A stretch of 50,975 nucleotides of DNA from a phage. Below are positions 20,485 to 27,524 of the stretch, one piece after another (the first letter of the stretch is position 1; every line of letters begins with the position of its first letter). Both the position numbers and the translations under genes were made by a program. A model generated the notes under the pieces. The model saw only the letters and a program-made list of their open reading frames with translations, ran no database searches and was not told the DNA's origin. The DNA lies in sequence record PZ871100.1; one strand, written 5' to 3'.

Positions 20485-20712
20485 TTACAGACTGCAATCA
20501 GCGTTTTTAAAGTTGTCAATGCTTACCCACTGAAAATTAAACGGATAGCCAGCCTTAACAAGAGTTCGATCGCCAACTCGTTTTACTCCAAAAATAGCAA
20601 CTGAATACTGCATGCCGCTATTTTCATAAATACCCGTGCATTCACGCTTAGGCATATTTGCGCAACCAGTCAGGGCAACGGCTGCAATCAAAACGGCGAT
20701 TAACTTTTTCAT
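20485..20712 (-). CDS. small lipoprotein, Cor-like superinfection-exclusion candidate
   Basis: 75 aa; signal peptide with lipobox LTGC; convergent with tail genes; own promoter unit. Confidence 0.55.
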   Translation of the reverse strand: MKKLIAVLIAAVALTGCANMPKRECTGIYENSGMQYSVAIFGVKRVGDRTLVKAGYPFNFQWVSIDNFKNADCSL

Positions 20713-23827: not shown

Positions 23828-23850
23828 AAAGGGGCATTACGCCCCTTTTT
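23828..23850. terminator. bidirectional terminator between ssb and convergent minus block
   Basis: AAA GGGGC attac GCCCC TTTTT. Confidence 0.65.
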
Positions 23851-24094
23851 CACTTTCAGCGATTCCAAGCACGGCAATAACCTTGACAGCAATTCGCTTT
23901 GCAAGTTCAGTTTGATTCGCGTTCAGCTTTCCGGTGGTCATTATTGACAACATTCCGCTCATACTTCCAAGACCGTTAAAATCTGACATTGCCGATTTCA
24001 TGATTGATATTGGTGAATGACCTTCATCAGCTATTGTGTGCGCTCTCTCTGACAGGTCTTTAACTACCTGATCAATTCCTTCACTTTTCGTCAT
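23837..24094 (-). CDS. hypothetical protein
   Basis: 85-aa ORF with AAGGAAAA RBS, last gene of the minus block. Confidence 0.35.
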   Translation of the reverse strand: MTKSEGIDQVVKDLSERAHTIADEGHSPISIMKSAMSDFNGLGSMSGMLSIMTTGKLNANQTELAKRIAVKVIAVLGIAESEKGA

Positions 24095-24572
24095 TTGCTT
24101 TTCCTTCAGTAGTTGATTGCTGTTCTGGCATTATAGGCCACGGGCTAATTGATTCCCTTTCTGCTACTGGTTTTTCAGGTTCAATACCTAAAAACTTTCC
24201 TACAAACTCACCAACAAAATTTGAGCTATCGCTTACATAAACATGCATCCTGTCTAGATCTGCAACCGTAACGCTATTTGGTGCGATCATGATCCTCTGT
24301 TGGTGAAAACCGATATACATCACATTTGCCGGACGCTCAATAGTTCCCATATTTGGCGCAATTACGCCCATTATCCAACAATAATGAATGTTGCCATCAA
24401 GCGGCTCACATCCAGCGTTAAGCCAGTTTACTTTCTGGTGTGGGAATGCCATTGATGAATCAGTAGCATCACGCCGCAACGACCATTTAACGCCTCCAAT
24501 CTCAATGATTTGTTTTGGCCTCATTCCGTTGAATTGAGTCACGCCAGCGCCATTTTGATTAATGTTTTGCAT
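24081..24572 (-). CDS. hypothetical protein
   Basis: 163-aa ORF, RBS AAGGTGA. Confidence 0.45.
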   Translation of the reverse strand: MQNINQNGAGVTQFNGMRPKQIIEIGGVKWSLRRDATDSSMAFPHQKVNWLNAGCEPLDGNIHYCWIMGVIAPNMGTIERPANVMYIGFHQQRIMIAPNSVTVADLDRMHVYVSDSSNFVGEFVGKFLGIEPEKPVAERESISPWPIMPEQQSTTEGKANDEK

Positions 24573-24586
24573 ATCGGTTCACCTTG

Positions 24587-24910
24587 TTACATTGATTTCA
24601 TTTTACGCAATGCGCAGACACAAGCGGCAGCAAGATCGGTTAATTCTTTCTCAATGCCATGATGCGATCCGTCTGCCTTTTCGGTCATTAGCTCTTTGTA
24701 TTCCATTTCTACAATCGACATTAAGCCGCCAGGCTTGTCAATGTGCGCGTCCCAGGTCTTAGGATGGTGCTTAGTTCTTTCAATAACACTTCCCATAACT
24801 GCATCATGTTCATGATCTCGATCATAATCTCTATCATGGCCATTTCCTCCAATTACTACTCGCGGCAAATGCACGCGTGGTAAATGATAGCCAGCGACAC
24901 GAATTTTCAT
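24587..24910 (-). CDS. hypothetical His/Asp-rich protein (tandem HLPRV)
   Basis: 107 aa; GAGGA RBS immediately after terminator hairpin; HLPRVHLPRV and DRDYDRDHEHD. Confidence 0.45.
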   Translation of the reverse strand: MKIRVAGYHLPRVHLPRVVIGGNGHDRDYDRDHEHDAVMGSVIERTKHHPKTWDAHIDKPGGLMSIVEMEYKELMTEKADGSHHGIEKELTDLAAACVCALRKMKSM

Positions 24911-24926
24911 GAGTATATCCTCTTAT

Positions 24927-24949
24927 AAAAAAGCGCCCCGAAAGGCGCT
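24927..24949 (-). terminator. terminator-like hairpin after glycine-rich protein gene
   Basis: Minus strand AGCGCC tttcgg GGCGCT then TTTTTT, then RBS of next gene. Confidence 0.55.
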
Positions 24950-24959
24950 TGATTTATTA

Positions 24960-25661
24960 TCAGCCGCAACAGCCAGTAGGCGGAGTCTGCGGAGTAGGCA
25001 ACTTGAAGTTTACCAATTGCTCTACCTGGTTGATTTTGCAATTCAGTGCGGCGGTCTGGTTTGCCTGAGATAGAGCAAATCGCGCCTCCTGCAACTGAGC
25101 TTTCATATCGCAAATCAATACAGCCTGAGAATCAGCGAACTGTTGACGCATCAGATCTCGCGTTGCGTTACCTTGTCGCTCAATGTTCAGGTTTGTCTCG
25201 CAGCAACATCTCTCGGCTGCAATCTGTGCCTGATAGGAACGCTCAAGAGCATTAACATCAGCAGCATTAATCGCAGCAACTGTCTGGTTAGTACCGCTAA
25301 CAATCGCGGTATTCAGTCCGGCGAAACCTTGCACCGATGCAAGCAGGCTTTGCGTATTCTGGCTGGTAATGCCGTTAAAGGTTGATGCTGCGGAGCGCTC
25401 AACGGTAAGGTTTGTTGAGTTTTGGCCTTGCAGAGTTTGCAGACCCAGGTTGTTTACGCCTGTCTGGATGTTATTAATACCATCAAGAACAGCGTTAGCA
25501 CCGACAGCAACAGCAGCACCATCACCACCATAACCACCACGACCATTAAAGCCGTTACCAAACCATGAACCAATCAGGCCGCCAACAGCACCACCAAGTC
25601 CAGCCGCGCCAGCTTCGCCACCAAAACCACCACCAGTAGGGAGTAAAGTCATATCTGACAT
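24960..25661 (-). CDS. glycine-rich protein with CCC / CCG cysteine clusters (function unknown)
   Basis: ATG 25661 with AGAGGA RBS; ~60-aa Gly-rich N-terminus, Gln/Asn/Thr-rich middle, CCCETN and C-terminal GCCG. Confidence 0.6.
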   Translation of the reverse strand: MSDMTLLPTGGGFGGEAGAAGLGGAVGGLIGSWFGNGFNGRGGYGGDGAAVAVGANAVLDGINNIQTGVNNLGLQTLQGQNSTNLTVERSAASTFNGITSQNTQSLLASVQGFAGLNTAIVSGTNQTVAAINAADVNALERSYQAQIAAERCCCETNLNIERQGNATRDLMRQQFADSQAVLICDMKAQLQEARFALSQANQTAALNCKINQVEQLVNFKLPTPQTPPTGCCG

Positions 25662-25838
25662 AGTAAATTCCTCTTTGACGTTAAAAAAAATTAAAAAAGT
25701 TTGCAACATTTATGTTACGACAAAGAGTATGCGCCTAACTGTCGGGAATAGATATAAATCATTTGTAAGCGATATGTAAGCAACTGGCATAAAGACGAAA
25801 AAAGCGCAGCCTGAGCCGCGCCTTTTGATTATTTTTTG

Positions 25839-27425
25839 TTAATTATCAGAAGTTTTATTCTTGTTGATAAATGCAGAAACAACAGCTTTCAGTTCTTCAA
25901 CCTCCTTTTCAAGATTTGAAACAATCTCTTTAAATTCGCTAATCTCATTCTCAAGAGCTAATACCTTGTTAGAGCTGTAAACGAATGCAGAACACAAATC
26001 CATCAACAGCACGTTACTATCAAGAGTCAGCACATCGTCTGTATACCCGATTTCCTTTCTGTCGACTACTACCTCGTTCCCGTCCTCGTCCACCCCCTTG
26101 ATGTCCTCATAGATGGCGTAACCAGGCAGCAAATGCACGTATTCCGGGTCAATCCTTGCCAGGTCCTGCGCGATAAGGCCGTATCGCTGTACGTCCGACT
26201 CCTTATACTTGAACATTGCCGGAAGCCATTGACGAACGCGGTTGTAGCTTTCCTCGCCGTCAGTGTATTGGATTTCTTTTTTAAGGTCGCGGTCCGATAG
26301 CGGCGCTTTCTGGAACTCGTTAACCGAAGGTTTGACGGAGTTACCACTAATCAGCCTTTGGTCTGGCATGAAGCGGAATAGCGCCTCACTATAACCATCC
26401 TTCCACACGTGGACACGGTAGTCCGATAAGTGGGTATCGCCGCCCCTAACCAAGCCAGATCGCGTCCAATCCGTGTACCACTTATGCATCGTCTGCCCAG
26501 CCCAACTATCAATCCCGAAAGACGCGTTAGATAGAATCAAACCGTTTCTTTCGACATCATTGAAGGTTAGCGATTCGCCTCCGTTCAGGCGGAGCGATGC
26601 GTGCTTAACGTTACTATCGTCGCCAACCCCTAGATTGGCGCGTGCCGCCGCTGCCGTTGTTGCTGCCGTGCCGCCTTTTTCGATGGGAACGGTGTTCTCC
26701 GTAGCTACAGACCCCAAACCAAGATTAGTGCGCGCCTCCGATTTATCCGCCAGCCCTGCCAGGTTGTCGGTTTTAGTTAGCAGGTTGCCTGGGTTTACGC
26801 TTTGCGCCCATTGCTCGGCATTAATTTCAGATTGCTTTGCGTTGACTTCAGAAGTTTTAGATTTTGTTTCCGATAACTTTGCTGCATCCTCAGATGATTT
26901 AGCTGCATTCTTCGATGCAAGTGCTTCTGACGCTGAATTGCTTGCGTTTGTCTCAGAAGTCTTCGCGGCGACCTCTGACAATTTGGCCTTATCCTCTGAT
27001 GACTTCGCTTCATTTTTACTGGCCTCAGTTTTAGCGGTGTTTTCCGCCACCTGATCAACCATCACCTTAAACGCTTCCCAATCAAACGTTTTGAAAAATT
27101 CAATAGCTTCCTCGATCTGAGTTTCTTTGCTTTGATAGTAACGCAGCGTTTCCGCAACATCTTGCGCCAGGCCGTCAACAGTGATTGAGTCATGCAGCAA
27201 AATAATGTAGTTACTTCGCCCAATTTCAGCGCCGCCAGTTGTGATGGCGCGGATTTGTGTATCGCTGATAACTTCACTGATCACAGCCGCTTGAAATGGT
27301 GCATCAATGAAAAAGATTGTTGCACCAGGGCGAATGAGTGTTAGTTGCTCTCGCCATTTTGTGTCGTATCCAGTGATATAACCTTGCGCGTCCATTGACG
27401 CTTGTCCGGTTCTGTAAATTGCCAT
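25839..27425 (-). CDS. tail fiber protein with C-terminal intramolecular chaperone (peptidase S74-like) domain
   Basis: ATG 27425 with GGGAGA RBS; Ser/Ala/Lys repeat region, NLGLG/NLGVG motifs, C-terminal chaperone-like region (RYGLIAQDL..., coiled coil). Confidence 0.8.
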   Translation of the reverse strand: MAIYRTGQASMDAQGYITGYDTKWREQLTLIRPGATIFFIDAPFQAAVISEVISDTQIRAITTGGAEIGRSNYIILLHDSITVDGLAQDVAETLRYYQSKETQIEEAIEFFKTFDWEAFKVMVDQVAENTAKTEASKNEAKSSEDKAKLSEVAAKTSETNASNSASEALASKNAAKSSEDAAKLSETKSKTSEVNAKQSEINAEQWAQSVNPGNLLTKTDNLAGLADKSEARTNLGLGSVATENTVPIEKGGTAATTAAAARANLGVGDDSNVKHASLRLNGGESLTFNDVERNGLILSNASFGIDSWAGQTMHKWYTDWTRSGLVRGGDTHLSDYRVHVWKDGYSEALFRFMPDQRLISGNSVKPSVNEFQKAPLSDRDLKKEIQYTDGEESYNRVRQWLPAMFKYKESDVQRYGLIAQDLARIDPEYVHLLPGYAIYEDIKGVDEDGNEVVVDRKEIGYTDDVLTLDSNVLLMDLCSAFVYSSNKVLALENEISEFKEIVSNLEKEVEELKAVVSAFINKNKTSDN

Positions 27426-27506: not shown

Positions 27507-27524
27507 TAAAAGTAGCAGTGACAT

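Follow-up and report, generated by a model that had tools for sequence, protein, structure and literature searches.

The gene considered here, which we call g1, lies on a 50,975-nucleotide stretch of phage DNA (sequence record PZ871100.1; hereafter the window). The window is ~95–96% identical to the Hanrivervirus (Drexlerviridae, Tempevirinae) genomes herni, damhaus, JakobBernoulli and KarlJaspers, with a gene order that is the same as in KarlJaspers wherever the two were compared and ~96% nucleotide identity to that phage across the g1 region. A preliminary description, made from the sequence alone, had placed an open reading frame (ORF) of 233 amino acids at positions 24960–25661. Both coordinates and length proved correct, and the gene is read from the minus strand; the encoded protein starts with MSDMTLLPTGGGFGGEAGAAGLGG and ends in PTPQTPPTGCCG. 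Together with three small genes downstream, g2, g3 and g4, it forms a cassette that recurs in other phages. The features of the locus are, in the direction of transcription:

25799–25826, minus strand: intrinsic terminator upstream of g1 that ends the tail-fibre transcript; 12-bp stem followed by a T-run
25703–25735, minus strand: candidate promoter/operator of g1, with a -10-like CATACT (25726–25731) and a degenerate palindrome GTAACATAAATGTTGC (25703–25718)
25668–25675, minus strand: ribosome-binding site AAGAGGAA, 6 nt before the g1 ATG; kept in KarlJaspers and JakobBernoulli
24960–25661, minus strand: g1 coding sequence (CDS), 233 amino acids, ATG at 25661–25659 and TGA stop at 24962–24960; member of PHROG 9288
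24931–24950, minus strand: intrinsic terminator directly after g1, found in the terminator scan and also flagged on the plus strand
24587–24910, minus strand: g2, 107 amino acids, PHROG 9157; His/Asp-rich N-terminal half and two-helix C-terminal half with conserved E70-x-x-E73...E89-x-x-D92
24081–24572, minus strand: g3, 163 amino acids, PHROG 8329; beta-rich, two conserved cysteines, no recognisable fold
23837–24094, minus strand: g4, 85 amino acids, PHROG 7239; small Met-rich helical protein

A Peptidase_S74 tail-fibre gene (25839–27422) lies 177 nt upstream of g1. The gene had been described as having a terminator and a promoter of its own. Two terminators on the same strand do bracket g1, but the promoter was not seen in a sigma-70 consensus scan of the gap upstream of it (25662–25798). 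The CATACT and the palindrome align with a clearer TATACT/TATGCT and with GTAACCnnnnGGTTAC ahead of the g1 homologues of phages Sasha and CAjan, and from this aligned element we infer that a g1 promoter exists; no second copy of either motif is present anywhere in the window. The terminator behind g1 is likely an attenuator ahead of g2–g4. An equivalent terminator is annotated directly after gp07, the g1 homologue of Salmonella phage Sasha. The T-run of the terminator in the window is convincing on the minus strand only, and the single-stranded DNA-binding protein (SSB) gene on the plus strand has its own terminator at 23828–23848.

The g1 protein and its family

The sequence of g1 is already in the databases as a hypothetical protein and an unnamed PHROG, and the ORF itself is no discovery. 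PHROG 9288, whose function is unassigned, matches g1 over its full length (E 5.8e-124; residues 1–233 against profile positions 1–234 of 234), and dozens of phage genomes in GenBank encode proteins 93–99% identical to it, labelled 'hypothetical protein'. We found 230 homologues at E <1e-3 in a collection at 90% identity. An exhaustive profile search gave 112 clusters at 50% identity, nearly all of them 200–290 amino acids long and with the same layout. The ratio of nonsynonymous to synonymous substitution rates (dN/dS) of g1 against its relatives is 0.016–0.19, which represents strong purifying selection. The sole functional labels found on the family are 'putative sugar-binding protein' and 'putative lateral tail fiber chaperone', and in phage KurtStettler the chaperone label sits on a fusion ORF that contains a Peptidase_S74 domain.

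That g1 matches no characterised family, as had been noted from the sequence, was borne out. Searches of Pfam, NCBIfam, PADLOC and PDB sequence profiles with g1 gave nothing significant, the best matches being PA2201_N (E 0.04) and Psb31 (E 0.033). Confident homology to a tail-fibre segment or another known family, which the preliminary description had named as evidence against its proposal, was looked for and none was found: fibre domains (Peptidase_S74, Gp34/37-type, collagen-like) gave no match in Pfam or NCBIfam and no significant one in PDB profiles, and a PHROG tape-measure match had an E of 0.32. The glycine-zipper Pfam families Gly-zipper_Omp, Gly-zipper_YMGG and Rick_17kDa_Anti, and YtxH, gave no hidden Markov model (HMM) match to g1 at E up to 10, and the PADLOC anti-phage defence families gave 0 matches to g1–g4 at E up to 1. 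Weak, non-significant PDB matches to the fusion-peptide region of influenza HA2 (E 1.1) and the glycine zipper of SlyB (E 4.4) are treated as analogies only. The protein could be assigned to none of the known kinds of system for which its membership was tested.

Nineteen GenBank records labelled 'Campylobacter phage' (host C. jejuni), among them MG065636, MG065637, MG065669 and MG065675, also match the g1 stretch. The four listed are ~95% (nucleotide) or 98% (protein) identical to this E. coli Hanrivervirus, and their host labels look wrong, or the records look like contaminants.

The g1 protein is acidic, with 11 Lys and Arg residues in total. Its composition is as previously described, with a Gly-rich N-terminus (38% Gly in residues 1–55), a middle part (56–150) rich in Ala, Asn, Gln and Thr, and cysteine clusters beginning with a CCC at 152–154. 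Its parts are, from the N-terminus:

25614–25661, minus strand: residues 1–16, conserved N-terminal peptide MSDMTLLPTGGGFGGE, acidic and free of Lys and Arg; M1, M4, L6 and P8 invariant
25557–25613, minus strand: residues 17–35, weakly hydrophobic glycine-zipper segment AGAAGLGGAVGGLIGSWFG, proposed membrane anchor; Kyte–Doolittle mean ~1.2
25497–25556, minus strand: residues 36–55, Gly/aromatic-rich linker (NGFNGRGGYGGDG...) carrying the first basic residue past the anchor; low confidence and no regular structure in the AlphaFold2 (AF2) model
25008–25496, minus strand: residues 56–218, predicted helical rod rich in Gln, Asn, Thr and Ala; AF2 helices at 56–68 and 80–218, predicted local distance difference test (pLDDT) 50–83
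25200–25208, minus strand: CCC motif, Cys152–154 within ERCCCETNLNIER; in 119 of 120 full-length close homologues
25110–25112, minus strand: Cys184 (LICD motif); in 119 of 120 homologues
25038–25040, minus strand: Cys208, co-varying with the C-terminal Cys pair; both in 81 homologues, neither in 34, discordant in 0
24963–25007, minus strand: residues 219–233, Pro/Thr-rich tail FKLPTPQTPPTGCCG, ending in the vicinal Cys231–232 (24966–24971)

The cysteines were surveyed in 120 full-length homologues, of which 5 could not be scored for Cys208. Cys208 and the terminal pair co-vary perfectly, and the three cysteines therefore make up one functional site. The CCC is kept in most distant homologues as well, as CCCETNRNID, and the tails of relatives are either Cys/Gly-rich (GCGNCGC) or Thr/Ala/Pro-rich. 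The N-terminal flank is acidic and poor in, or free of, Lys and Arg in most of 87 members of the family. The best 17-residue window of g1 reaches a Kyte–Doolittle value of 1.18, against 2–3 at the same position in distant homologues, which have a strongly hydrophobic helix with Gly-rich flanks in place of the glycine zipper. Their N-terminal flank is acidic with nearly no Lys or Arg, and such residues usually come past the hydrophobic segment. A QGFAGLNTAI motif in the rod is present in 1–4 copies in relatives. A weakly informative analysis of hydrophobicity along the sequence gave a period of ~3.67 residues within 56–150 and none in 150–218. Structure prediction of the monomer, which had been suggested as a check on the nature of g1, gave a long helical rod, but at low confidence, and Foldseek found 0 matches to the AF2 model in PDB.

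The cassette in other phages

PHROGs 9288, 9157, 8329 and 7239 follow each other in the same order and on the same strand in the window, in Sasha, in CAjan and in Yersinia phage vB_YenM_12. Among the 34 IMG/VR loci with close g1 homologues, 33 contain all of g1–g4, whereas only 18 have a Peptidase_S74 fibre gene upstream. The cassette is located between the terminase and portal genes in Sasha, where it adjoins a homing-endonuclease-like gene, and among the early genes in the PY100-like vB_YenM_12. No Peptidase_S74 fibre gene precedes the g1 homologue in Sasha, vB_YenM_12 or the Clostridium perfringens phage CPD1. The conserved context of g1 is the cassette, not the tail fibre. An association with the fibre, suggested earlier from the position of g1, holds for the arrangement in the window but not for just under half of the IMG/VR loci nor for Sasha and vB_YenM_12, and the preliminary interpretation as a whole is partly supported.

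The g2 protein is probably a MazG-like all-alpha nucleoside triphosphate (NTP) pyrophosphatase with a metal-binding extension. Its profile has no Pfam match and a weak match (E 0.006) to PDB 2p06 (AF_0060), which we take to be a member of the MazG-like all-alpha NTP pyrophosphatase superfamily. This match supports, without proving, the label 'putative pyrophosphatase' given to g2 in the GenBank records of JLBYU09 and KurtStettler. Runs of His are found in the N-terminal halves of g2 homologues (for example HHHHHYHHGHH in Sasha, HHHVHHHHY in locus L060), and further homologues of the g2 family are found in loci L005 and L042. The cassettes of Seuratvirus have a fifth small gene, absent from the window, that encodes a Cys-rich protein of 67 amino acids (MCGNTNRCC...CNC; CAjan, locus L006, 5782–5985).

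Homologues of g1 were found in T1-like, 9NA-like, Seurat-like and PY100-like phages, as remnants in T5-like phages, in C. perfringens sipho- and podophages and in one crAss-like phage. The distant relatives, identified by profile and reciprocal tblastn searches, are encoded by phage contigs and prophages from gut metagenomes, including those of Dialister, Phascolarctobacterium, Megasphaera and Clostridia, as well as by cultured C. perfringens phages (CPD1 and others) and by the crAss-like phage cr53_1, in which the homologue gp66 is annotated 'spike protein/glycoprotein'. Under translation table 11, gp66 and gp65 of cr53_1 (L116, 4461–5833) show in-frame stop codons, consistent with stop-codon reassignment in that crAss-like lineage.

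In these gut-type loci (L009–L033, L069–L114, L115 for CPD1 and L116 for cr53_1) g1 has another set of partners, constant in >40 loci: a Q-rich protein of ~150 amino acids upstream, a Met/Gln-rich protein of ~70 amino acids, the g1 homologue, and downstream a Cys-rich head followed by a ferritin-like or DUF7841 protein. A sigma-70 region-4 regulator is often found upstream, and the cassette is located between the lysis and replication modules. The profile of the Cys-rich downstream protein matches PDB 9H38 (F-BclA C-terminal domain, CTD; E 8.5e-6), BclA (4e-4) and C1q (1e-3); 9H38 is the C-terminal head of F-BclA (PMC12357932). The last partner gives either a weak, sub-significant ferritin match (E 0.008) or a match to DUF7841 (E 1.7e-22), a domain for which our literature search found no papers. 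Comparison of the enterobacterial g2–g4 with the gut-phage neighbour families using hhalign revealed no relationship, and g1 is therefore the constant element, with exchangeable partners. Judged from the sequences, neither g2–g4 nor the gut-phage partners (C1q-like head, ferritin-like, DUF7841) have a signal-peptide-like N-terminus.

The gene is intact in 32 of the 34 IMG/VR loci, and several other phages carry it in broken or rearranged form. In JakobBernoulli (Bas07, L001) a CAA to TAA change at Gln78, corresponding to window positions 25428–25430, splits it into two annotated CDSs, and this phage is a ready-made natural g1 null mutant. Only the last ~75 residues are left in PLYYY01 and SHIN8, and genomes of the T5-like Epseptimavirus have broken remnants after the receptor-binding gene; phage polluks has a pseudogene. 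A deletion hybrid, P0121, found on 11 metagenomic contigs, joins g1 (...CCCETNLNIER) to g3 (PVNVMY...) at an IER microhomology and has lost the C-terminus of g1, all of g2 and half of g3. In two independent fusions the C-terminal helix of the Peptidase_S74 intramolecular-chaperone domain has been placed on the N-terminus of g1, joined at g1 residues 17 and 5 in KurtStettler (bas22_0024; L003, 3981–5513) and Shigella phage 2019SD1 (L067, 5386–6021), respectively. Both delete the intergenic terminator and promoter; the first runs in frame to the g1 C-terminus and the second breaks off after approximately residue 75. These fusions are the source of the 'lateral tail fiber chaperone' label on the family. 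The phages can dispense with g1. Its breakage in some of them, set against 32 intact copies in 34 loci, marks g1 as an accessory gene of conditional use.

Two further observations concern neighbouring genes. The tail-fibre ORF, when extended mechanically, starts at 27524 on the minus strand, yet a strong terminator (27507–27491) falls inside that extension; the true start is probably the ATG at 27422 (MAIYRTGQASMD), in agreement with the fibre N-terminus in IMG/VR locus L054. A 75-amino-acid ORF at 20485–20712 (minus strand), ~0.9 kb downstream of the end of the J-like tip gene as placed in KarlJaspers, encodes a lipoprotein signal with the lipobox MKKLIAVLIAAVALTGC and is probably a Cor/Llp-type receptor-blocking exclusion lipoprotein.

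Possible roles of g1

These data are best explained by an accessory cassette that moves horizontally, is dispensable and has its own expression signals, with g1 as its signature subunit rather than a component of the tail fibre. As to the role of the protein, we favour the reading, at a probability of roughly 0.4, that g1 is an oligomeric helical stalk, anchored in the host membrane and stapled by its cysteines, which acts from the cytoplasmic side as a scaffold for the cassette partners. The host-directed effector proposed in the preliminary description would be compatible with this reading. The N-terminal segment would insert into the cytoplasmic membrane of the host with its short acidic end outside (N-out/C-in), an orientation with which the sole nearby basic residue, located after the segment, is in keeping. 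The rod would oligomerise on the cytoplasmic side, probably as a trimer, be stapled at its cysteine sites through disulfides or metal, and, present in large amounts, hold the partner proteins as their scaffold. These partners all lack a signal peptide, and with the terminator behind g1 the expression of g2–g4 would be lower than that of g1. Because the cassette is portable across unrelated particles and host phyla, its target is probably something universal, e.g. the cytoplasmic membrane. Also in favour of this reading are the truly hydrophobic helix that distant relatives have at the anchor position, the cassette's own expression signals and the ease with which it is lost. Any benefit to the phage would be conditional. 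It could lie in superinfection exclusion, in counter-defence or nucleotide control at the membrane via g2, or in the timing of lysis or assembly.

With slightly less confidence still, the family may mark an undescribed class of phage cassette, in which a Cys-stapled helical stalk with a membrane anchor at its N-terminus is joined by exchangeable partners, and which moves among phages of Proteobacteria, Firmicutes and Bacteroidota, crAss-like phages included. Such a cassette could build a membrane-tethered machine (for exclusion, counter-defence or the control of lysis or assembly) or a portable virion appendage. The searchable literature gave no description of one anchor-stalk protein whose sets of partners are exchanged among phages of three phyla. 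If the cassette is one functional unit, it represents a widespread uncharacterised phage module that is strongly conserved, easily lost, and exchanged between unrelated particles and hosts. Genes directed at the host cell or at rival phages typically show this pattern, and it is such genes that most often lead to new biology, for instance exclusion, counter-defence or the control of lysis. The proposal is easy to test, as E. coli phages of the BASEL collection carry g1 (KarlJaspers, Bas06) and include the natural nonsense mutant JakobBernoulli. Annotations of the family should not carry forward the labels 'putative sugar-binding protein' and 'lateral tail fiber chaperone'.

Several points weigh against a membrane-anchored cytoplasmic stalk. 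The proposed anchor of g1 in this phage is only weakly hydrophobic (mean ~1.2), and the annotators of Sasha, who marked transmembrane domains in other genes, marked none for gp07. The charge bias that would favour N-out/C-in depends on one or two residues and is a weak indication. Confidence in the AF2 monomer is low (pLDDT 57), with one long helix (80–218) and an unstructured N-terminus, and heptad periodicity is weak in residues 150–218. The poorly charged rod, rich in Gln, Asn, Thr and Ser, and the Pro/Thr tail appear more like those of extracellular or fibre proteins than of cytoplasmic coiled coils, and so many cysteines are unusual in a reduced compartment unless they bind metal. Strict synteny with g2–g4 could mean co-inheritance rather than a physical complex, and g1 directly follows a fibre or receptor-binding gene in three phage groups (Hanrivervirus, Seuratvirus and Epseptimavirus). 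Finally, the literature on g1-carrying phages (Hanrivervirus, Seuratvirus, 9g and vB_YenS_P400) yielded no virion proteome and no topology or expression data.

The main rival reading, less probable but serious, makes g1 the stalk of an accessory virion fibre, in line with the structural option of the preliminary description. The protein would be a trimeric coiled-coil rod assembled in the cytoplasm, with its Gly-rich hydrophobic N-terminus buried in the particle, cysteines that lock the chains after release, and a separate head at the tip, C1q/BclA-like in the gut phages and perhaps g3 here. A helical rod of ~140 residues would span ~20 nm, the composition of g1 resembles that of fibre proteins, and in the gut phages a gene for a trimeric head, Cys-rich and C1q/BclA-CTD-like, comes next. 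With its Gly-Cys-Cys end behind a Pro-rich stretch, g1 is reminiscent of collagen III and its interchain cystine knot. Partners without signal peptides are what virion assembly in the cytoplasm leads one to expect, and the position of g1 after the lateral fibre or receptor-binding gene in the three groups named above fits as well. Nevertheless, particles as unrelated as those of siphoviruses, myoviruses, podoviruses and crAss-like phages offer a portable fibre no common docking site, and in Sasha, vB_YenM_12 and CPD1 the cassette is located among non-structural genes. A true transmembrane-type helix would be odd in the fibre of a tailed phage, which has no membrane, and the cassette in the window holds a MazG-like enzyme instead of a head domain. 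There is no homology to any fibre family. The loss or breakage of g1 in viable phages also counts against a fibre, although lateral fibres too are dispensable in the laboratory.

We consider it distinctly less probable that g1 is exported or active in the envelope, be it through a signal-anchor or release-type anchor with a disulfide-linked periplasmic strut (exclusion or spanin-like) or as a glycine-zipper channel (holin-, toxin- or bacteriocin-like). Signal-anchor-release domains and glycine-zipper channels typically have N-terminal segments that are rich in Gly and Ala and weakly hydrophobic. The length of the rod is near the width of the periplasm, and the Pro/Thr tail and co-varying cysteines would fit an oxidising compartment. 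In the gut phages and cr53_1 the cassette adjoins holin and lysis genes, and the non-significant likeness to HA2 and SlyB and the 'spike protein/glycoprotein' label in cr53_1 point the same way. The N-terminal flank, however, is acidic and without the basic residues that Sec signal-anchors have. Neither within g1 nor next to it is there a gene for a lipoprotein partner, the phage already encodes holin, endolysin and u-spanin elsewhere, and Pfam gave no match to Rz, holin or Gly-zipper families. Homologues in phages of the monoderm C. perfringens mean that the role is not specific to the periplasm or outer membrane, and the cassette has neither exporter nor immunity genes, no typical double-glycine leader, and partners without signal peptides.

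A small probability remains for a cytoplasmic metal or redox module, in which a metal would be bound or buffered by two cysteine sites of g1 (the CCC and the Cys208/terminal-CC site), by the His-rich g2 and, in other phages, by the ferritin-like protein and Cys-rich partners found with the relatives of g1. The cysteine sites of g1 are invariant or co-varying, His runs occur in the N-terminal halves of g2, CAjan has an extra Cys-rich fifth gene, and the second downstream protein of the gut cassette has a ferritin match, albeit a sub-significant one (E 0.008). All of this is compositional, with no match to any metal-binding family; the conserved half of g2 is better explained as a MazG-like pyrophosphatase with an acidic motif that binds Mg2+, and the anchor and long rod are left unexplained. 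A chance or mis-annotated ORF with no real product, which the low-complexity Gly-rich N-terminus and the lack of a characterised family might suggest, is refuted by the conservation data, namely the low dN/dS, the 32 intact copies in 34 loci, the strong ribosome-binding site, and the 112 clusters of the same architecture with homologues in phages of three bacterial phyla.

Some more specific candidates were tried and rejected. A spanin was rejected on the lack of a lipoprotein partner, the presence of a u-spanin in the phage and the homologues in phages of monoderm hosts. For a class II bacteriocin or microcin, 233 amino acids are far too long, an acidic N-terminus of 11 residues precedes the GG where a double-glycine leader would have about 15–25, and the neighbours are MazG-like and unknown proteins. 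A type IV pilin-like signal (G|FxxxE) was discarded on its acidic leader, inconsistent spacing and lack of homology.

Comparison with known systems

Within PHROG 9288, g1 is a typical full-length member, and no difference from the family was seen. Outside it, the likenesses are partial. With the glycine-zipper proteins (SlyB/PCP, YtxH-like proteins and bacteriocins) g1 shares the GxxxG-type hydrophobic N-terminal segment AGAAGLGGAVGGLIGSWFG, but Pfam gave no match up to E 10, SlyB matched at E 4.4 only, g1 has no lipobox or leader, and the remaining architecture is unlike theirs.

The lambda Rz-type i-spanins, inner-membrane subunits of two-component spanins, have an N-terminal membrane segment such as we propose for g1, and further likenesses are a long helical domain, conserved cysteines, which might form bonds between molecules, and a Pro-rich end. 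Unlike them, g1 has no companion o-spanin lipoprotein gene: no second minus-strand ORF of at least 40 amino acids lies inside g1, and g2 has no lipobox. It also lies outside the lysis cassette, the holin, endolysin and u-spanin of KarlJaspers being located at 35.8–36.9 kb, its homologues extend to phages of monoderm hosts, and there is no Pfam or PHROG match to Rz.

Fibres of the BclA, F-BclA and C1q type (anchor, trimeric stalk, globular head) follow a similar overall plan to that proposed for g1, with anchoring at the N-terminus, a long rod and a Cys-rich junction at the end, and a gene for a C1q/BclA-CTD-like head comes next in the gut cassettes. The stalk of g1 is, however, predicted to be alpha-helical and not built of collagen GXY repeats, the head is encoded separately from the stalk and is missing from the cassette in the window, and g1 has neither an exosporium leader nor sequence homology to BclA.

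Bitopic proteins of the phi29 p16.7 type have an N-terminal transmembrane helix, a coiled coil and a cytoplasmic functional end. No homology of g1 to these was detected, and g1 differs in being acidic, with its 11 Lys and Arg residues, and in having no DNA-binding domain. The likeness lies in the topology and the scaffolding on the cytoplasmic side of the membrane that we propose for g1, and in a locus that borders replication and recombination genes.

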